A stretch of 64,000 nucleotides of DNA from an uncultured Nitrospiraceae bacterium (GCA_963706325.1 CAVPLT010000005.1:128001-192000), one strand, 5' to 3'; shown: positions 7,302-20,893, counted from the stretch's first letter. The notes: a model not told the origin generated them from the sequence alone. A program made the numbers and translations.

Positions 7302-7934
7302 ATGGGTAGGGTGAGAGCTATGAGCAGTCGATTTGTGGGCGTTCAGGCTACCGAAATGCCGATGGTCGGATCTCTCATCAGGTTGAATCGAGGTGTCAGG
7401 GATCTGATGAGTTTGATCCACGAGGACTGGGTGACCAATTACCGGGATTGGACGTTGCCGGGGTTTCGAGCCATTGCCGTGCATCGCATAGGGACATGGC
7501 TCTCGGATAGACGTGCAAGCCTGCTGAAATCTTGTTTGCTTACGCTGTACCGGCTCATGTATCGCTATGTGCGGAATCATTATGGAATTGAAATCCCTTT
7601 ACCCGTCACGCTCGGACGTCGCTTGTTCCTGGCGCATCAACACGGCATTGTCTTCCATTGGAAGACGGTGATAGGGGATGACTGTCTGATCCGCCACAGT
7701 GCCACGATAGGCGCTGGGTATGGAGGGGAAAAAACTCTCCATAAAGGACCGCGTATAGGGAATCGCGTGGAGATCGGTCCCGGAGCTGTGATCTTTGCAG
7801 GAGTCAAAATCGGCGATGGCGCCATCATTGGCCCAAATACCGTGGTCATGGCGGATGTTCCAGCTGGGGCTAGAATTTTTGCGGAGGCACCTCGCGTGAT
7901 TCAGTTGCCGAGCGCGCAATGCAAAAGCTCGTGA
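7302..7934 (+). CDS. Left-handed beta-helix acyltransferase (serine acetyltransferase-like)
   Basis: YGIEIP, HQHGIV, IGDDCLIRHSATIG, PRIGNRVEIGPGAVI hexapeptide repeats; true start may be downstream (7320-7407). Confidence 0.88.
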   Translation: MGRVRAMSSRFVGVQATEMPMVGSLIRLNRGVRDLMSLIHEDWVTNYRDWTLPGFRAIAVHRIGTWLSDRRASLLKSCLLTLYRLMYRYVRNHYGIEIPLPVTLGRRLFLAHQHGIVFHWKTVIGDDCLIRHSATIGAGYGGEKTLHKGPRIGNRVEIGPGAVIFAGVKIGDGAIIGPNTVVMADVPAGARIFAEAPRVIQLPSAQCKSS

Positions 7935-8064
7935 CGAAAATAAGGTGTAGACACTCGTTAGAGTAGGCTGGTTCTGCTCCCAGCCAGGGCCTTTCCTAGT
8001 CATCTCAGTCTTGTCTTTAAAGCACACTACAACGTGATTTGATTGGAACGATCTGTCACTCGCC

Positions 8065-10068
8065 ATGAATAGCGCCACACCAGACCACATCTCCCTGGAT
8101 ACTGTGCTGACCGCGGAGGCTCGGGGGGACGCCTTTCGTAAGGCAGGAAAGTTCAAGCATGCCATCCAGGCCTATCTGGAGGCCGTGGCGCATCCACCAT
8201 CGGCCGAATTGTGTCTCAAACTCGCTCGAAGCTTTGAGCAGATCGGAAGCTATTCAGAAGCCTCTCGGTGGGCACTATCCATCGTGGATTCCGGCGACGA
8301 TTATACGGCATGGCAATCCGCATCGACGTTATTGCAACGCTGTGCATTGAAGGCTGAGAGGCCAACGGTCCGGTTCGTCAGGGCGGCGCTTCTGGGAAGC
8401 TATACTACAACCCAGCTCGGCGTGATGCTCTGTCTCGCTGCCAGCCGATTTGGGATCGCGATTGAACTTTATGAGAGCCACTATGGGCAGTACCAACAGG
8501 AGATCATCAATCCCGAAAGCGGGTTGTATGCATTCGGTCCAGAAGTCGTCATCCTGGCGGTTCACGAAAAAGACCTGCGGCTCTCAGAGTACAGCCCGAA
8601 TCCAGAAGAGGACATTGAGCAGGAAGTCAGCCGTTGGACGGCCCTCTGGCGACTGGTTGCGGAACGTTCCCGCGCCCGCATCATTCAGCATAACTTTGCG
8701 CTGCCTTGTGATATCCCCACCGGCCATCTTGCCGCACGTCTCCCCGGATCTCGATACATGATGGCGCAAGCCGTCAATGCTCGCCTTGGTAATGTGGCCG
8801 CGAATGAGGTTTCGCTGGTAGATTGTGAACGTCTGTCCGCATTCATTGGAAAGCCACGATGGTGTGACCCCCGATATTGGAACCTGTCCAAGCAAGCCGT
8901 GGCGCTAGAAGCCATTCCCTTGCTCGCACGACATACGGCGGCAGTCGTGGCGGCGGCGCTTGGGTTAAGTCGGAAATGTCTGGTGCTGGATCTGGACAAT
9001 ACGCTGTGGGGCGGGGTGATCGCAGAAGAAGGATTGGCAGGAATCCAATTGGGCCATGGCGTGGAGGGGGAGGCCTTCGTGGCCTTTCAGGACTATCTCC
9101 TTACATTGAAGGAGAAGGGCGTTATTCTAGCAATCTGCTCCAAGAACAACTATGCCGATGCCATTCTGCCGTTCGAAAAACATACCGAGATGCGACTGAA
9201 ACTTGGAGATATCGCCCTCTTCATTGCCAATTGGGAATCGAAACCCGACAACATCCGCAGGATCGCGAAGACGCTGCAAATCGGACTGGATTCAATGGTA
9301 TTTGTGGATGATAACCCTGTTGAGCGCGAGATCGTGAGCAAGTTTCTGCCCGAAGTTGACGTGATCCCTCTGCCGGAGGATCCGTCGTATTATGTCCGAG
9401 CGCTCTCTCAGTATCTCCTGCTCGAGACGAACTCGTTGACGGCCGAGGATAGTCAGCGAACCGACCAGTATCGGGCCCGGGCGCAGATCCAGGAGCTCGA
9501 GTCTACAGCCGGCTCGATTGAGGATTTTTATCGGAGCCTCCAGATGCAGGCAATTGTGGCGCCATTTGAGGCCTCGCAACTGCCGCGGATTGTTCAGCTC
9601 ATCGGCAAGACCAATCAGTTCAATCTCACCACTCGCCGGTACAGTATGCCGCACCTGGAGGCGTTCGTGCAGGATGCGAGCTGCGTGCACCTCGCGTTAC
9701 GGTTACGGGATCGCTATGCCGATCATGGGCTGGTCAGTCTGATTATCGCGCGCCAACAAGGCACGATGCTGGATATCGATACGTGGCTCATGAGTTGCCG
9801 TGTCATCGGTCGGACCGTGGAAACAACAATCCTGGAGCATCTCTGCCGGCGCGCAGCACAGCTTGGCTGCACGTCGCTTCAGGGAACCTATATTCCGACA
9901 GAGAAGAATGCGATGGCGGCAGATGCATACGCTAAATGTGGATTCGAGCGGGTCAGGCAGGATGGTGGACAGGAAATCTGGTTCTACGATCTTCTTGCCC
10001 AAGGCCTGATCACCAACGAGTTTGTGAAGACGGTCGAATCCTGGGAACTTGCCGATGGCGCTGCCTGA
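8065..10068 (+). CDS. FkbH-like HAD-IIIC glyceryl transferase/phosphatase with N-terminal TPR-like extension
   Basis: LVLDLDNTLWGG (DxDxT), CSKN, FVDDNPVER, KTNQFNLTT, LMSCRVIGR motifs. Confidence 0.93.
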   Translation: MNSATPDHISLDTVLTAEARGDAFRKAGKFKHAIQAYLEAVAHPPSAELCLKLARSFEQIGSYSEASRWALSIVDSGDDYTAWQSASTLLQRCALKAERPTVRFVRAALLGSYTTTQLGVMLCLAASRFGIAIELYESHYGQYQQEIINPESGLYAFGPEVVILAVHEKDLRLSEYSPNPEEDIEQEVSRWTALWRLVAERSRARIIQHNFALPCDIPTGHLAARLPGSRYMMAQAVNARLGNVAANEVSLVDCERLSAFIGKPRWCDPRYWNLSKQAVALEAIPLLARHTAAVVAAALGLSRKCLVLDLDNTLWGGVIAEEGLAGIQLGHGVEGEAFVAFQDYLLTLKEKGVILAICSKNNYADAILPFEKHTEMRLKLGDIALFIANWESKPDNIRRIAKTLQIGLDSMVFVDDNPVEREIVSKFLPEVDVIPLPEDPSYYVRALSQYLLLETNSLTAEDSQRTDQYRARAQIQELESTAGSIEDFYRSLQMQAIVAPFEASQLPRIVQLIGKTNQFNLTTRRYSMPHLEAFVQDASCVHLALRLRDRYADHGLVSLIIARQQGTMLDIDTWLMSCRVIGRTVETTILEHLCRRAAQLGCTSLQGTYIPTEKNAMAADAYAKCGFERVRQDGGQEIWFYDLLAQGLITNEFVKTVESWELADGAA

Positions 10069-10074
10069 CTCGCC

Positions 10075-11601
10075 GTGAGTGGTCCAGCCTCCCCACTGCA
10101 CATCACTACAGTATCTTTCACGGCTCAGGACCTGGCGTTGTTCAGTGCTGCCAGTCACGACCGGAACCCACTCCATATATCGGAGGAGTACGCCCGGGCC
10201 ACGCCCTATGGCGAACCCGTCGTGTTCGGGATTGTTGGGGCATTGGCTGCCCTCGGACAGCTCCCCCAGCAGGAGGAAAGAGTCCTACAGCGAGTCGAGC
10301 TCGAGTTCCGGAATCCACTCACCGTGGGAATGCCGTACCTTGTGAAAGTGGGCGAGCCGTCGACAGACCGGGCGTCCGTCAGACTCTATGATGCGGCTCG
10401 TTTGATGCTCAAAGCGACCTTCAGGTTTCTGCCTGGACCTAAGCAGGCGCGAGCGCACTCCATTAAAGAGGCGCCTGGTCCTACGGAGGCGGAGGACCGG
10501 CAGCGCGGGAGCTTTCGCGTAGGCGACTGCGTGAGAGGTATCTATGGTCCCGTTACCCGTCCGTTCCTGCAAGTGATTGAACGCTGGGGGCTTACTTCCA
10601 AGGGAGCGACCGCGATGCAGATCGCGGCAATGATGTGGGCAAGTTTTATGGTCGGAATGAAATTGCCCGGAAAACGCGCGATGTTTTGGCGATTGATGCT
10701 CGATTTCCATCCTGAAGATGGAAACCAGAAGGAACCGTTTTCATACGAGCTGACCGTTCAGGACTTCGACGAACGAGTCGATCTGCTTCATACCCTAGGC
10801 AGTCTTTCCTTAGGCGGCAGGATCTGCGCGGCGGCGCAGATGTGGGCCTTTGTGCGGCAGGATTCTCCCACACCGTCACTCCGTCAGATCACAAATCTTG
10901 CGCCACCTTCCGACCAGTTGAAAGGTAAGGTGGCATTGGTCATCGGTGGTAGTCGCGGCCTCGGTGCTGCGATCACCCAGGCATTGGCTTCGCAGGGGTG
11001 CACAGTCCTGGTGAACTATCATCAAAGCAATGCGGAGGCTGAGCACATTCGGACAAGTCTTGGAGACCAATCCCGCCTGATTAAGTTGGTGCAGGGGGAT
11101 GCTGCGGATGTTGAATGGTGCGAGGCCATGCGTCAGAATGTCCTTGCGCAGTACGGCGGTCTTGATGTGCTGGTGTGCAACGCCGCACCACCTATTCGCC
11201 CGCTGACGTTTGCGCCGGAGAAGCTCGCGCAGTTTCAGGACTTCATCGCGCGCAGTGTGGCGCTGGTCGGTTTACCCATGTCCAGTTTCCTGGATACGTT
11301 ATCTGAGCGTTCGGGGTGGAATGTGGTGATCTCATCGGCATTCGTGAAAGATCCCCCCGCAGATTGGCCGCACTACGTGACGGCCAAATGCGCCGTCGAG
11401 GGACTGGTGCACTGGGCCTCCGCTCAGCATCCGAAAGTGCGCAGTCTGATCGTCCGGCCGCCGAAGTTGCTGACGGATCAAACCAACACGACTTTCGGTC
11501 GGCAAGGGGCCATGCGGGTTGAGCAGGTGGCCACGGCGGTAGTCGGACAGCTCTGTCGCCCCGGGTTTCCCCAGACCGTGCAGGTACTGGACAGATTCTA
11601 A
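10075..11601 (+). CDS. MaoC-like dehydratase / SDR ketoreductase fusion
   Basis: N-terminal FSAASHDRNPLH hot-dog motif; C-terminal GGSRGLG, VCNAA, YVTAK. Confidence 0.88.
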   Translation: MSGPASPLHITTVSFTAQDLALFSAASHDRNPLHISEEYARATPYGEPVVFGIVGALAALGQLPQQEERVLQRVELEFRNPLTVGMPYLVKVGEPSTDRASVRLYDAARLMLKATFRFLPGPKQARAHSIKEAPGPTEAEDRQRGSFRVGDCVRGIYGPVTRPFLQVIERWGLTSKGATAMQIAAMMWASFMVGMKLPGKRAMFWRLMLDFHPEDGNQKEPFSYELTVQDFDERVDLLHTLGSLSLGGRICAAAQMWAFVRQDSPTPSLRQITNLAPPSDQLKGKVALVIGGSRGLGAAITQALASQGCTVLVNYHQSNAEAEHIRTSLGDQSRLIKLVQGDAADVEWCEAMRQNVLAQYGGLDVLVCNAAPPIRPLTFAPEKLAQFQDFIARSVALVGLPMSSFLDTLSERSGWNVVISSAFVKDPPADWPHYVTAKCAVEGLVHWASAQHPKVRSLIVRPPKLLTDQTNTTFGRQGAMRVEQVATAVVGQLCRPGFPQTVQVLDRF

Positions 11602-11696
11602 GCGCGAAGCAGGCGCGGTCCCGCTGTGCATAAGGCGATCGCTGACAATTGATACGGAACGGATCGCAGGACGCGATCGAAACTTGGGAGTAGACA

Positions 11697-11933
11697 ATGG
11701 AGTTGCACGACCGACTGGAAGAAGTATTCCGGCAAGTGTTCGATAATGAGGATCTTCTCCTGGCCGATGAGATGAAGGCGACGGATATTGAAGGATGGGA
11801 TTCGGTCACTCATATCAATTTGATGTTTGGCATCGAGCAGGCGTTCGGCGTCCGGTTCAAGGGTAACGAGCTTGCAGACATGAAAAATATCGGGGAGCTC
11901 AAACAGTTTCTGACCACGAAAAGTGGCCGGTAG
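11697..11933 (+). CDS. Acyl carrier protein
   Basis: 78 aa acidic protein with GWDSVTH phosphopantetheine site. Confidence 0.92.
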   Translation: MELHDRLEEVFRQVFDNEDLLLADEMKATDIEGWDSVTHINLMFGIEQAFGVRFKGNELADMKNIGELKQFLTTKSGR

Positions 11934-12153
11934 GCCGTTGAAGCGCTGCAGATCTTCCTGGTGCTAGAATCCTTCGGGTCTATTACTGCTGCAACCCCGT
12001 CGCTGGCGTGATCGAGGGTTCAGGTTGCACTCTTAGGCAAGGTGATCTCAGACTGGAATCTGGTGGCTGTGGGACCCGCAGCGTCATCACCATCTACCGT
12101 TGGATGGGTGATGCTTCGGGAGTATGAAATGTACCTTCGCGGATCTAATTTAA

Positions 12154-13425
12154 ATGGGTGACCTCGCGGTTCAAGTCGACAGATTAGCGAAGCGTTATCG
12201 CCTGGGGGCGACCCATGCCCACGACGGGTCCCTGGCCGGCGCGTTGACTCGGGGGGTACGCAATATGCTGGGCCGGCGGGCAGGGCCGTCCCCCGTCAGC
12301 GACGTCCTGTGGGCGCTCCGCGACGTGTCCTTCGAGATCAAAAAAGGCGAAGTCTTTGGGATCATCGGCACGAATGGGTCGGGAAAAAGTACGCTCCTCA
12401 AGATCCTCTCCCGGGTGACGGAGCCCACGCAGGGCCGGGCGGTGATCAATGGACGCTTCTGCGGTCTGCTGGAAGTGGGGACGGGCTTCCATCCGGAATT
12501 GACCGGCCGCGATAACGTGTACATGAGCGGGGCCATTCTCGGCATGAAGCGCCAGGAAATAGCCCGAAAGTTCGACGAAATCGTGGCGTTCGCCGAAGTG
12601 GAGCAGTTTATCGACACGCCGGTGAAGCATTATTCCAGCGGGATGTATGTCCGATTGGGATTCTCGGTCTTGGCCCACATGGACCCGGACATTCTCATTG
12701 TCGATGAGGTGCTGGCCGTGGGGGATGTCCGCTTCCAGAAAAAGTGCATGGGCAAGATGGAGGACGTGGGGCAGCAGGGGCGGACGGTGATCTTGGTGTC
12801 GCACGACATGCCGGCCATCACTCGGATGTGCAAACGCGCAATGCTCCTGAATAAGGGCCAAGTCGTGCAGGAAGGGTCGGCGCATGAGGTCGTCAATCAC
12901 TACCTCCATGCCGGCCACCTCAAACCCGATAAAGAGTGGCAGGACCCTGCTCAGGCGCCGGGGAACGAGGTGGTGCGCATGCGGGCCGCACGGGTGCAGA
13001 CCGTGTCGGGCATGGTCATGGATCGATTTGATATCCGAAAACCGATCGACCTCGAAGTGGAATTTGATGTGGTGAAGCCGGGGCATGTCTTCGTGCCGGT
13101 CTTCAACCTGTATAATGAGGAGGACGCCGTTATCTTCATCGCCCATGACCGCGATAAGTTATGGCAGCGAACCCCTCGTCCCGTCGGTCGATATGTGTCG
13201 ACCGCTCGAATTCCTGGGAACTTTCTTTCCGAAGGGGTCATTACCGTCTCGCCGATCATGCTGACGGAGGATCCTTTTCGGCTGCATGCCCATGCCCCTC
13301 GTGTGCTGGGCTTTCGAGTGGATGATACGGGGACCGGGGACTCGGCTCGAGGAGACTTTCATGGTCGATGGCCAGGATTCGTGCGCCCGCTACTGGAATG
13401 GAAGACTCGATTTACGCCAGCCTAG
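12154..13425 (+). CDS. wzt: Polysaccharide ABC exporter ATP-binding subunit with C-terminal carbohydrate-binding domain (Wzt-like)
   Basis: GTNGSGKST, GFHPELTGRDN, YSSGMYVRL, DEVLAVGD..FQKKC; extra Wzt_C-like domain. Confidence 0.9.
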   Translation: MGDLAVQVDRLAKRYRLGATHAHDGSLAGALTRGVRNMLGRRAGPSPVSDVLWALRDVSFEIKKGEVFGIIGTNGSGKSTLLKILSRVTEPTQGRAVINGRFCGLLEVGTGFHPELTGRDNVYMSGAILGMKRQEIARKFDEIVAFAEVEQFIDTPVKHYSSGMYVRLGFSVLAHMDPDILIVDEVLAVGDVRFQKKCMGKMEDVGQQGRTVILVSHDMPAITRMCKRAMLLNKGQVVQEGSAHEVVNHYLHAGHLKPDKEWQDPAQAPGNEVVRMRAARVQTVSGMVMDRFDIRKPIDLEVEFDVVKPGHVFVPVFNLYNEEDAVIFIAHDRDKLWQRTPRPVGRYVSTARIPGNFLSEGVITVSPIMLTEDPFRLHAHAPRVLGFRVDDTGTGDSARGDFHGRWPGFVRPLLEWKTRFTPA

Positions 13426-13605: not shown

Positions 13606-13995
13606 ATGAATGCCAAGATACTTGGGGCAGGGTTGTTGCTTGCGCTCTTGAACGGATGCACGACTGTCGCACAAGTGACGACATTGGCGGAGGAATCCTG
13701 TCATCGCGCGATGCAGGATCAGCTGGAATCGATTCTCACTGAGGAGCACGAACCACCAGAGATGGCGAATCGTTTGGCCGTAAATACGACCACGGTACTG
13801 GCCACCGGTGCGCTTGGACCTCGCCCCTTTGGAGTCTCGTCGCCGTCGGGTGCCGACTACAGTTTTTTTATCCAGCGCAAGGGCGACGAATGTCTGTTGC
13901 GACTGTACGGGCGGCAGAAGGGTTTTACTCGCTACACGAATAACTTGACCTATATTGCCACGCGATCGCTGGAGGCTTGTGCCTGCGCCGAGTAG
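13606..13995 (+). CDS. Hypothetical lipoprotein
   Basis: Signal peptide with lipobox LNGC; additional Cys residues. Confidence 0.7.
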   Translation: MNAKILGAGLLLALLNGCTTVAQVTTLAEESCHRAMQDQLESILTEEHEPPEMANRLAVNTTTVLATGALGPRPFGVSSPSGADYSFFIQRKGDECLLRLYGRQKGFTRYTNNLTYIATRSLEACACAE

Positions 13996-14284
13996 CCGGT
14001 TGCACCGTCAGGCGCTTGTAACGGCCGTCCAATGCTATCTTTTTCCACTCGGGGAGAGTCAACCCAGCATAGTGCAGCGTCTGGTCCTGCTTTCTGAGGA
14101 GTGCCCTTCCATTGAGCCTTGCCGGGGCACCGGATACCTAGCATAGCGAGACGAGCGCATGAAGCGGGGCGTTGTGATAGGTTTGCGAGGAAGGGCTGAC
14201 GTCAGCCTGTGTGGGGTAAGGGCTTCGGACAAGGACGGTGCGCTTGATCAGTTGCGCAAGGGGCACCCAAGGGGCAAATCTGTG

Positions 14285-14521
14285 TTAGAGCCCAGGGATG
14301 GGATGAGGTAGGTCCTTGGTGCCCAAGGTCTGGCGCCACTCTCCCACGATCTGGTCCCGTTCTTCCATGCTCATGCCTGCGTACTTACGGAACATCTGTG
14401 GTCCTCGTCGGCGCCGCCACGTGAGAAAGCCGAGAAAGTGGTCTTTGCAGACGGAACGGGTTCCGGCCGGGGCGTAGACGTGCGCCTGACATCCTTCGAT
14501 GATACAAACCTGTCCGCTCAT
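14285..14521 (-). CDS. Small hypothetical protein with putative Zn-binding C-x4-C-x13-C-x2-H motif
   Basis: MSGQVCIIEGC...VCKDH; GGGAGG RBS upstream of ATG 14521. Confidence 0.6.
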   Translation of the reverse strand: MSGQVCIIEGCQAHVYAPAGTRSVCKDHFLGFLTWRRRRGPQMFRKYAGMSMEERDQIVGEWRQTLGTKDLPHPIPGL

Positions 14522-14752
14522 CGGTGCCTCCCTTAATTCCCGCAAAGTATGCCGGAGATCGACCCGCAATTGCAATTCGCTCCGGCGGCGCCGCTTCCAC
14601 ATCCGACAGTGAAGCAGGCGGAGGAAGCAGGTGCCATCGGCGGTGGCTGCACGATCGGTAGTCTCTTGCGGAGGGATATTCCCCTTGCAATCGTGACAAG
14701 CAGCCAGGTACCGTACCGCGATCTCTTGCAGAGTTTAGAACTCGGGTATGCT

Positions 14753-14998
14753 ATGACAATGCAGGTCATATCGGTGGTCGGAGCGCTCATGGTGCTTTTC
14801 GCCTATGGCCTGATCCAAGCCGGAACCTGGCGTGAATTAGATGCAGGATACCTGGCGCTGAATATTGTTGGGTCGCTGCTTTTGGGAATCGTCGCTTTAG
14901 AGGATCGGCGGGTGGGGTTCGTGCTGCTGGAATTCGCATGGGCCGGGATTGCGATGGTCGGAGTCGCCCGAGCGGTTCGTGCCAGACGCGGCCTCTAG
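14753..14998 (+). CDS. Small membrane protein (CBU_0592-like)
   Basis: Three hydrophobic helices; GA..VL.AY.L.Q, YLALN..GS.LL, GF..LE..W pattern. Confidence 0.7.
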   Translation: MTMQVISVVGALMVLFAYGLIQAGTWRELDAGYLALNIVGSLLLGIVALEDRRVGFVLLEFAWAGIAMVGVARAVRARRGL

Positions 14999-15060
14999 CC
15001 AAGTGAGATGTGCGGGATGTACGACAGACATCGACTAGTCATGTAACGAAGGAGCAAGGA

Positions 15061-15546
15061 ATGATGGCAGGGTTATTGTCGGCAGATGAAATATTCGAGC
15101 AGGCCAAGAATGCGGCCGCCGCAGCGACCAATCAGGACGAGAAGGCGCTTCAGATCGACTATGATGCGTTACAGCTCAAGTTCCGGGCGGCCCTCGGCGA
15201 TCGCAAGGTGGCGCGATGCCACATCAATAAATTTCTTCCAGAAGGGTATGAGGATCAAGGGCGGTTCAACTTGGTGCTGCTGACCGCCGGGAACGTGATT
15301 TTCGATATCGTCATCGGAGATTCATATTTTCGGTATGATGTCGTGTCCGTCGGGCATTTGGACAAGGTTCAGGTCATCGATGCCATGTGGGACAATCGTG
15401 AGAAGCGCCAGGAGGAGCCGTTCTTGAGTCTTCGACTTATGCACGCCGAGGAGACGCATTTGCTGCTCGCGTTGGATGACGAAGCACGGAAGAGCCTGCT
15501 GGGATTTGCATCAGCCGTGTCGGCCGTGCGAAATCCTGAAAAGTAG
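15061..15546 (+). CDS. Hypothetical protein
   Basis: 161 aa ORF with AAGGA RBS and protein-like composition. Confidence 0.7.
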   Translation: MMAGLLSADEIFEQAKNAAAAATNQDEKALQIDYDALQLKFRAALGDRKVARCHINKFLPEGYEDQGRFNLVLLTAGNVIFDIVIGDSYFRYDVVSVGHLDKVQVIDAMWDNREKRQEEPFLSLRLMHAEETHLLLALDDEARKSLLGFASAVSAVRNPEK

Positions 15547-18023: not shown

Positions 18024-18824
18024 CTACTTCTGCTGCAACCTCTTCTGAATCAATTCCGCCCCATAACGGCCCGATAGCAGCATCGAACCGAAGGCCGGGC
18101 CCATCCGTGGCGTACCGAACACCGCCGCGACGGCCAATCCGATGACGAAACAATTGGGAGAGACTTCGCCGGTCCGATCCATGACCTCTTCTTCCGACCG
18201 CGACACCCACATGGCGCCGTTGCCCGGCACCTGTGAATACAGCCCGCGTTTGTGCAGGAGATTGACCACCACTGCATCATGTCCGGTCGCGTCGACGACG
18301 AGTTTACTCTCCAGGGCGATCGGATCGACATGGATAATGTCATGGCCGGCCATTTCAGCGGTGGTGCTGTTGACCACGACACCTTCGAGCACGCCCTCCC
18401 CGCGCAGGATCAAATCGACCACTCGCGTCAGGTTCATGATCTTCGCGCCGGCATCGTAGGCGGCGGCAATCAGCGCGCCTGTGGCATGCGGAGGGTCGAC
18501 CATATACATGCCGGGGCATTCCTTGATCTGCTTACAAGGTACGCCCACCTCTTTGAGGATTTTGTGGGCTGGGGCGCAGATCGTCGCTTTATTCATCAAA
18601 TAGCCGCCGGACCAAAACCCACCCCCCAGCGCGAGGCTCTGCTCCACGATGAGGGTCTTGACGCCCATCCTGGCCAGGTCGTGAGCGCAGATCAAGCCGG
18701 AAGGTCCGGCGCCGACGATAATGACGTCGCTCTCGATGAGTTGATCGAACTCTTTATAATATTCCCGCGCGATGTGGCGGGTCACGTCGCGCTCTCGTAG
18801 TGGCGCCGGTTTTGGCTTCCCCAT
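18024..18824 (-). CDS. thi4: Thi4-family thiazole synthase, non-Cys (His) type
   Basis: DVIIVGAGPSGL, LGGGFWSGG, HVDP, DATGHDA, PRMGPAFGSMLLSG; downstream of thiC. Confidence 0.92.
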   Translation of the reverse strand: MGKPKPAPLRERDVTRHIAREYYKEFDQLIESDVIIVGAGPSGLICAHDLARMGVKTLIVEQSLALGGGFWSGGYLMNKATICAPAHKILKEVGVPCKQIKECPGMYMVDPPHATGALIAAAYDAGAKIMNLTRVVDLILRGEGVLEGVVVNSTTAEMAGHDIIHVDPIALESKLVVDATGHDAVVVNLLHKRGLYSQVPGNGAMWVSRSEEEVMDRTGEVSPNCFVIGLAVAAVFGTPRMGPAFGSMLLSGRYGAELIQKRLQQK

Positions 18825-18840
18825 GCTGTCTTTCCCTTCA

Positions 18841-18958
18841 CCGACCGTTGAAATGGCTTCCGACTTCGTTTTCGGCTCTTCCAAGTCCTCAACGTACCCT
18901 GATGTACGCCTCCGGTTTGGGCTCGCTTGTGGCCTCAACGGAGCCATTCTGACCAGCC

Positions 18959-18961
<3 letters not shown>
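18841..18961 (+). repeat. Degenerate copy of the palindromic element
   Basis: GTTGAAATGGCTTCCG ... CTCAACGTAC-CCTGAT-GTACGCCTC ... CTCGCTTGTGGCC ... CGGAGCCATTCTGACCA; right end abuts the thiC stop codon. Confidence 0.7.

Positions 18962-20893
<1,932 letters not shown>

Follow-up and report, generated by a model that had tools for sequence, protein, structure and literature searches.

The question raised by a five-gene cassette in the DNA of an uncultured Nitrospiraceae bacterium is what enzymes of a kind characterised in natural-product assembly lines are doing beside a hexapeptide acyltransferase and a component of a glycan exporter. The cassette lies within a stretch of 64,000 nucleotides (the window, in whose positions coordinates are given unless a genome or locus is named); G000 denotes the window's own genome, and the other G and L numbers denote compared genomes and loci. 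A preliminary description had proposed that a glyceryl unit is loaded onto an acyl carrier protein (ACP), converted through pyruvyl to lactyl and passed by the acyltransferase to an O-antigen, a capsule or a sugar nucleotide. The reading that we consider reasonably probable is a pathway for ACP-fed C3 acylation of an exopolysaccharide, accompanied by a spare copy of the exporter ATPase Wzt.

All five genes (Table 1) are co-oriented with intact frames and belong to the families previously named, and the acyl-building module is indeed detached from polyketide synthase (PKS) and nonribosomal peptide synthetase (NRPS) genes: the three ketosynthase matches of the genome all lie on contig C1 and none on the contig of the window, and no ketosynthase, condensation or adenylation match was found in the window, in the Nitrospira loci or among the LbH loci listed (at least 80). 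The proposed glycan exporter was borne out for its ATPase, since wzt is intact, and not for its permease; because the wzm beside wzt is a remnant only, 'exporter' here means half a transporter. One phosphopantetheinyl transferase match was found in G000, located elsewhere (C4:539592).

Table 1. Genes and gene remnant of the cassette, in window coordinates.
Feature	Position	Strand	Basis
LbH acyltransferase, short CysE/WcaB-like form, 210 aa	7302..7934	+	Hexapep match
TPR-FkbH glyceryl loader, 667 aa; N-terminal TPR, FkbH_N, HAD domain, C-terminal domain	8065..10068	+	TIGR01686
MaoC-type dehydratase fused to SDR ketoreductase (MaoC-SDR), 508 aa; optional in relatives	10075..11601	+	Pfam
Dedicated ACP, 78 aa, Ser36 in WDSV motif	11697..11933	+	PP-binding
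Decayed 3' wzm remnant (permease pseudogene)	11972..12152 (about)	+	nucleotide and tblastn matches
Wzt, 423 aa; intact ABC ATPase and divergent, cassette-specific Wzt_C-like C-terminal domain	12154..13425	+	ATPase motifs

Regarding the acyl-building module, the FkbH protein matches TIGR01686 with 291.1 bits (cut-off 146.65) and keeps the motifs DLDNTLW at residue 309 and MSCRV at residue 576, both of which align with the FkbH domain of a Burkholderia PKS; in this family they correspond to the HAD DxDxT motif and to the acyl-accepting Cys. Its TPR match is below cut-off (E 8e-6), and the PP-binding match of the ACP (19.5 bits, E 0.0012) is just under the cut-off of 20.8 with the DSV motif present. 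A plasmid search returned eight full-length relatives of the MaoC-SDR protein, one of them in Burkholderia sp. FERM BP-3421, which we take to be the FR901464 producer. In that strain the relative is the N-terminus of a large PKS gene, to which the MaoC-SDR protein is 33% identical from end to end (494 columns, E 2e-69), and the next domain of the same PKS is 28% identical to FkbH (E 4e-46); the ACP gave no significant match to this PKS region. The hydratase dyad (D29, H34) and the SDR triad (S420, Y434, K438) are invariant in 56 homologues of the MaoC-SDR protein, whose structure model (pLDDT 94) matches the SDR fold with Z 28 and whose N-terminal part matches R-hydratases (E 1e-6); since Foldseek and VIA-align searches with the model returned SDR chains only, the assignment of the hot-dog part rests on the sequence matches. 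According to a passage in PMC4765723, citing He et al. 2014, DH-KR (dehydratase-ketoreductase) proteins turn glyceryl-S-ACP into lactyl-S-ACP in FR901464 and lankacidin biosynthesis. Lactyl-ACP may thus soundly be inferred as the product of the module, as an expectation from homology rather than a result. The proposed glyceryl to pyruvyl to lactyl chemistry gains support from this homology to the PKS starter module and from the retained catalytic residues, and has to be narrowed in that MaoC-SDR is optional among relatives.

The resemblance is to the lactate-starter module of trans-AT PKSs (DH-KR-FkbH-ACP, as for FR901464 and lankacidin), with which homology of DH-KR and FkbH and the active-site motifs are shared. 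In contrast to that module, the cassette consists of separate genes, its FkbH carries a TPR region, and LbH and Wzt stand in place of the assembly line; because no ketosynthase-bearing assembly line is fused or adjoining, the cassette is not a member of the PKS lactate-starter modules. A second, distant FkbH-like gene of the same genome, split over two frames (G000:C2:7678-9403, L122), adjoins O-antigen-ligase-like and glycosyltransferase genes.

Comparison of relatives shows that the cassette is a unit typical of the window's genus. The FkbH orthologue was detected in 28 of the 36 genomes of the genus and, beyond it, in 7 of 214 from other genera of the family, and MaoC-SDR in 25 of the 36 and in none of 24 genomes of other families. 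Twenty loci were chosen from the 25 relatives with a MaoC-SDR match: all five genes occur in the same order in 18, the other two stopping at a contig end, so that the gene order is not due to chance, and the cassette occupies at least two chromosomal sites among relatives. The closest homologues carry Nitrospira source names, the ACP is 80-89% identical in 19 of the 20 loci, and LbH is kept in all 20 with dN/dS mostly at 0.09-0.16, one close pair reaching 0.55; among the large genes of the cassette, conservation is highest in wzt. The cassette of G030 is frameshifted throughout.

An exopolysaccharide locus appears to be the native home of the module. Among the seven genomes of other genera that contain FkbH, five have LbH-FkbH-ACP amid glycosyltransferases, two of them also with MaoC-SDR; the remaining two are one short contig and G072, which has the layout of the window. 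Upstream of the trio, four of the five embedded loci contain genes encoding Wza, an outer-membrane barrel, Wzc, a priming transferase, a deacetylase, Wzm, Wzt, RfbF, a C-methyltransferase and a DUF4910 protein, and the fifth reaches DUF4910 at its contig end. DUF4910 is presumably also the family of Cj1295. The same polysaccharide locus is present in the window's genus, where a Wzc orthologue occurs in 32 of 36 genomes; among the 28 with FkbH, 26 have the Wzc orthologue and 25 have a wzm that shares at least 77% identity with that of the cassette type. Judged from gene context, the simplest history would be that the trio left the polysaccharide locus together with a duplicate wzm-wzt, a direction that is given here without a rooted tree. 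Because the trio is embedded in this locus, the acceptor is most likely its polymer or one of the sugars thereof. The claim that LbH acylates a surface glycan is therefore favoured by the glycan context of the trio, with the amendment that a Wza/Wzc exopolysaccharide is a likelier acceptor than the O-antigen. In several genomes a nucleotidyltransferase-domain gene and a gene for a thiamine pyrophosphate enzyme precede the polysaccharide locus (L136:3-2187), a pair that presumably recalls phosphonate biosynthesis.

The LbH protein, which may start at the second Met (7320; an identical database protein has 204 aa), shares the hexapeptide fold of CysE, EpsC and WcaB and scores below the cut-offs of these families (80.1 against 210.65 for CysE TIGR01172; 65 against 195 and 88 against 150 for WcaB and EpsC). 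It keeps His112, corresponding to the His of the CysE 'DHATG' motif, but differs in having EIP where CysE has 'DIHP', so that the Asp of that motif is missing, and HKGP in place of the whole 'DRHP' motif, and in being shorter by some 50-60 residues at the N-terminus, the alignment beginning at about CysE residue 100-117. In CysE these motifs supply the catalytic His and bind serine, respectively. LbH enzymes able to use acyl-ACP are exemplified by LpxA and LpxD. A further difference from CysE, EpsC and WcaB is that LbH usually adjoins an ACP loader. The metagenome scan for LbH gave at least 80 loci, of which the 54 lower-ranked ones were scored (two of them Nitrospira-like): among these listed matches, FkbH lies within the locus in 29, an E1/transketolase with a lipoyl acyltransferase and an ACP-like gene in 2, and no ACP loader despite 1.5 kb of room in 6, the other 17 being too short. 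The six loci lacking a loader form one clade (support 0.989), and outside it all 31 distant loci with a scorable neighbour, among the matches listed, have an ACP loader of one of two unrelated kinds. The best argument that this LbH subfamily takes acyl-ACP is that it adjoins two unrelated ACP loaders. Glycan genes were found in 9 of 11 FkbH-bearing LbH loci with informative neighbours, again among the matches listed (L173, L175, L177, L178, L192, L196, L206, L216 and L218); L198 also has wzm-wzt, and L171 has an SGNH protein only among its informative neighbours. The two loci of the other kind (L207:3233-6699 and L187:7569-11091) have a gene of the LbH subfamily followed by an E1/transketolase fusion and then by lipoyl acyltransferase and ACP-like genes, and L207 has GT2 and sugar-nucleotide genes as well; the arrangement is a candidate for a glycolyl-ACP route to sugars.

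Regarding the exporter, the wzm remnant aligns with the intact wzm of another cassette at 66% identity over 184 nt (E 3.7e-5) and gives tblastn pieces in two frames (E 0.001). In the 24 loci where the gap between ACP and wzt could be measured, wzm is intact in 5 and not intact in 19, of which 5 have a remnant; G010 and G014 also keep the cassette wzm. The loss is real, since contigs of three sequencing runs bridge the junction gap-free, the best run possibly being the window's own source. The Wzt ATPase, nearest to the Wzt/TagH families, retains Walker A (GTNGSGKST, 72), signature (YSSGM, 160), Walker B (LIVDE, 181) and H-loop (VSH, 215) motifs. In seven pairs of cassettes that lack wzm, dN/dS of wzt is 0.05-0.15 over the gene and 0.06-0.21 over the last 165 residues, showing that Wzt is under purifying selection even without wzm. 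A single-sequence Wzt fold (pLDDT 34) was not used. The idea of several orphan wzt genes, each with its own capping cassette, was rejected, as among 23 Wzt in 20 loci the paralogues follow their own wzm with the exception of one orphan (L127). A contig of run X1 has 13 differences within 76 bases at the start of wzt (12240-12315) and almost none elsewhere, like a short exchanged tract; raised read depth at 12600-12823 stems from ATPase motifs of other organisms.

Both the cassette wzt and the wzt of the polysaccharide locus were recovered from nine genomes, and their two halves differ in history. Within a genome, DNA identity between the copies over codons 51-250 is 97-100% in seven genomes and 91-95% in two (protein 98-99.5%), compared with 76-96% between genomes (up to 98% for one close pair); over codons 301-423 the identity of the copies is 54-64%. 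A tree of the ATPase part pairs the copies by genome and a tree of the C-terminal part splits them by locus (support 1.0). The longest stretches shared without a mismatch measure 1529 bp in G007, where wzm is included, and 678 bp in G011; in G031, by contrast, identity between the two wzm genes is 72-85%. As far as identities and trees can tell, this pattern is that of gene conversion. The near-identical tracts could instead have been produced in assembly, but four of the seven genomes with 97-100% identity consist of one or two contigs, many draft contigs end inside wzt, and G009 has four wzt ends with no middle, all of which would be expected of a true repeat. Reciprocal loss also occurs, G010, G014 and G018 keeping wzm-wzt in the cassette and having none in the polysaccharide locus. 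According to parts of PMC9445017 and PMC11231755, Wzt C-terminal domains recognise chain-end caps and can act in trans. The identity pattern suggests that the two Wzt proteins may be alternative, swappable subunits of one permease. The further step, that one permease is served by two interchangeable ATPase subunits of which the cassette Wzt reads the ACP-derived lactyl or glyceroyl group, we regard as doubtful. Four of 89 C-terminal Wzt positions that are invariant in 12 cassettes with MaoC-SDR differ in all three without it (comparison counts: 4 of 482 in FkbH, LbH and ACP, and none in four control trios), a weak hint, from three related genomes, of covariation with MaoC-SDR loss.

Further wzt copies were noted in this comparison. 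In the one-contig record of G009 (L029, L232, L233, L234), two starts and two ends of the gene are scattered over four sites far apart, all lacking the middle; the record is probably mis-joined at the repeat. In G026, L127:7192-13180 has a near-cassette-type wzt that follows an integrase and a GT2 gene and has neither wzm nor acyl genes next to it, and an ACP 84% identical to that of the window lies 6 kb from it; this orphan outside any cassette, as a tenth pair, showed no conversion. In G028 (L276:10934-13048), the wzm of the polysaccharide locus precedes a wzt whose C-terminal domain is of the cassette type, either a recombinant or a mis-join.

The mechanism that we favour starts from gene content, synteny, remnants, selection and the identity pattern as observed, and adds to them, as inferences, all of the chemistry, the nature of the acceptor and the idea of a shared permease. 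From knowledge of its family, FkbH would load glyceryl from 1,3-bisphosphoglycerate onto holo-ACP, and MaoC-SDR, by homology to PKS DH-KR, would dehydrate it to pyruvoyl-ACP and reduce this to lactyl-ACP; where MaoC-SDR has been lost the group would stay glyceroyl. The LbH trimer, in the cytoplasm, would then acylate a sugar of the Wza/Wzc-wzm-wzt pathway, either at the stage of the nucleotide sugar or within a lipid-linked glycan, as its genomic context suggests. In the window's genus the unit would have moved out of the polysaccharide locus with the duplicate wzm-wzt, of which wzm would usually have been lost and Wzt retained as an alternative subunit with a different C-terminal domain, gene conversion keeping its ATPase half like the other copy and hence fit for the same permease.

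Several observations weigh against this mechanism, and those that bear on Wzt are given first, the others with the alternatives to which they lead. The Wzt_C identity of the C-terminal domain has an indirect basis: PF14524 was matched below cut-off by 11 of 14 aligned relatives (best E 4.9e-7) and not by the window's own domain, and a PDB profile search with the alignment of the domain gave nothing significant. Contigs mapped to the window show no second ATPase copy in G000, and the closed genome G072 has a cassette lacking wzm, a wzm of only 66% identity elsewhere and no conversion; the idea of a near-identical partner for every wzm-less cassette therefore fails for these two genomes. The polysaccharide locus has no wzm-wzt in G013, although no cassette was found there, and a broken copy in G029. 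The C-terminal domain of the single Wzt of the embedded loci is 55% identical to the locus type and 41% to the cassette type, and because it is closer to the former, the cassette-type domain is not needed for an acylated polymer in the sister genera, and the proposal that this domain serves to read the acyl group is weakened. One LbH-FkbH-ACP locus (L209) has no glycan gene among seven scanned neighbours.

The best-surviving alternative, although an unlikely one, is that the activities are unlinked, LbH acetylating the polysaccharide from acetyl-CoA as an ordinary O-acetyltransferase and a transferase from some other locus taking the C3 acyl-ACP to a lipid or a different acceptor. LbH is nearest to CysE, EpsC and WcaB, and its nearest characterised relatives use acetyl-CoA; the clade without a loader described above stands beside glycosyltransferases, and the module elsewhere comes with other transferases, MBOAT in L057 and a GNAT-like protein in L045. 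Against this, LbH is the only transferase in the cassette, it is kept under low dN/dS in all the relative loci, and its distant homologues outside that clade have an ACP loader without exception among the matches listed.

The transfer of glyceroyl (or pyruvoyl) throughout, with MaoC-SDR as an accessory whose product is minor or not lactyl, ranks next and is improbable too. Three genomes (G001, G007 and G017) have LbH-FkbH-ACP-wzm-wzt without MaoC-SDR, remnants of which are found in two, so the core is LbH-FkbH-ACP and its product probably glyceroyl in some genomes; MaoC-SDR is likewise absent from most distant LbH-FkbH-ACP loci, being found in 4 of 29 among the matches listed. In most pairs, moreover, its dN/dS (0.16-0.29) exceeds that of the other four genes, and N-glyceroyl sugars are known (passages in PMC3068675 and PMC6120980). 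These values still reflect purifying selection, however, and the presence of MaoC-SDR in 25 of the 36 genomes of the genus with both active sites invariant speaks against this reading.

Less probable again is that the cassette is stranded in G000, its acceptor locus and permease being gone and its genes idle or serving another glycan through the wzm-wzt of contig C1. The G000 assembly (96% complete, 8 contigs) contains no orthologue of Wzc, RfbF, DUF4910 or the glycosyltransferases of the locus and no close wzm, the only Wzm candidates among its five ABC-2 permease matches being 48-51% and 25-28% identical, and the wzm remnant is still recognisable. On the other hand, the five frames are intact, and one RNA run gave contigs over LbH, FkbH and the end of MaoC-SDR, a weak signal that possibly comes from DNA and cannot show transcription; three RNA runs held merely 5-10% of the window's sequence words, and one was examined further. 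A gap in the assembly is equally likely, because the Wzc orthologue is so common in the genus, and the window's lineage recently had a locus copy of wzt, as its ATPase-coding DNA clusters with the G023 copy from that locus (support 0.998). The assembly may also have foreign ends, since the last genes of contigs C4 and C5 presumably resemble, as judged by eye, genes of other phyla. The wzm-wzt of contig C1 (G000:C1:870560-872758, L121) has a clear Wzt_C domain and no glycan neighbours by eye, and a Wzt of this length class recurs in most genomes of the genus.

The survey of MaoC-SDR homologues covered at least 80 loci, 52 of which were generic SDR matches and were dropped. Among the matches listed, 25 loci from outside Nitrospira have a long match to MaoC-SDR; FkbH is present in 23 of them, and the 25 divide into 7 PKS, 7 NRPS and 11 neither. 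Six of the 11 have glycosyltransferase, flippase or sugar-nucleotide genes (L046, L049, L051, L057, L058 and L061), and the other five comprise two with a deacetylase only, two with LbH only and one short locus. Presence of the module is therefore not enough to indicate a glycan, a result that counts against a simple interpretation; as distant MaoC-SDR homologues often sit with assembly lines, the glycan link rests on the LbH-bearing subset. Of the neighbourhood pattern that the preliminary description anticipated, the LbH-FkbH-ACP trio in glycan context across genera and metagenome loci was recovered, and a general association of MaoC-SDR with glycan genes was not, given the 14 PKS or NRPS loci. 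That the cassette, like those 14 homologues, makes an acylated small molecule, or a glycolipid, having nothing to do with the exopolysaccharide, and that wzt is a passenger, is very improbable: the five genes include no glycosyltransferase (nor any kinase or methyltransferase family), yet assembly-line matches are missing throughout the window, the Nitrospira loci and the LbH loci listed, wzt is conserved and under selection without wzm, and the trio is embedded in the polysaccharide locus of sister genera. Two related sets were seen in passing: in another family, L238:8013-14439 (G039) has a shorter MaoC-SDR with LbH and a cytidylyltransferase, a glycan-linked FkbH/ACP set, and in a cyanobacterial record, L057:501-16187 has an MBOAT version of the FkbH/ACP set beside CMP-sugar genes.

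Acylation from a dedicated carrier protein has precedents. In the Dlt pathway and the V. cholerae O1 tetronate genes, such a protein gives a small acyl group to a surface polymer; both load the carrier by an adenylating enzyme, and Dlt uses an MBOAT. The cassette differs in that adenylating loader and MBOAT are both absent from its five genes and the scanned neighbours. Surface sugars of bacteria are known to carry glyceroyl and lactoyl groups. As described in parts of the respective papers, N-glyceroyl sugars are found in Campylobacter flagellin (PMC3068675) and the Tannerella S-layer glycan (PMC6120980), the gene for the Tannerella glyceroyl group being called elusive in the latter, a 2018 paper. 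The likeness to the proposed pathway lies in C3 hydroxyacyl groups on surface sugars; those systems differ in concerning nonulosonic acids on proteins, and ACP and FkbH are unnamed in the available parts of PMC3068675 and PMC6120980. With the cap-recognising Wzm/Wzt exporters of E. coli O9a and A. aeolicus the cassette shares the ATPase and a Wzt_C-like domain beside glycan-modifying enzymes. The caps described in sections of PMC9445017 and PMC11231755 are methyl, (methyl)phosphate or Kdo, and the terminators carry a coiled-coil ruler; in the cassette, by contrast, an acyl-ACP module takes the place of such modifiers, only a remnant of wzm is left and the two Wzt share a near-identical ATPase, and its parent locus also has Wza/Wzc. 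The QncN/QncL/QncM module makes glycolyl-ACP feeding an NRPS (in part of PMC6335953); L187 and L207 are alike in E1/E2/ACP content, by domain content only, and the window uses FkbH. No relevant publication linking FkbH to glycans or lactyl was found in the literature searched, which excluded most subscription journals, and neither 'acyl carrier' nor 'glyceroyl' occurs in the text of PMC7685785.

The origin of glyceroyl and lactyl groups on surface sugars becomes directly testable in vitro with this soluble set of four proteins, for which the natural variants with and without MaoC-SDR predict lactyl and glyceroyl, respectively. Nitrospira is a widespread nitrifier genus whose aggregates depend on exopolysaccharide. 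If the proposed pathway is true, FkbH chemistry extends to the nitrifier cell envelope. The wzt pattern, if real, would show a glycan exporter gaining a second specificity without a second permease and, if the cassette Wzt does read the acyl group, an export signal derived from acyl-ACP with a natural specificity switch by subunit exchange; on that doubtful reading the LbH subfamily would in addition be a general hydroxyacyl-ACP:sugar transferase fed by FkbH or an E1/E2 module.

Regarding the surroundings of the cassette, its GC content is unremarkable, a promoter and terminator scan gave no signals above chance, and the flanking genes are unrelated, with SnoaL, LuxR and EamA genes upstream and three family-less open reading frames and gcvT downstream. 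The three frames (129, 149 and 178 aa; 13606-15546, 3' of wzt) are syntenic in G027 and G001. Further on, at 18024-20875, a Thi4-family thiazole synthase gene directly follows thiC.

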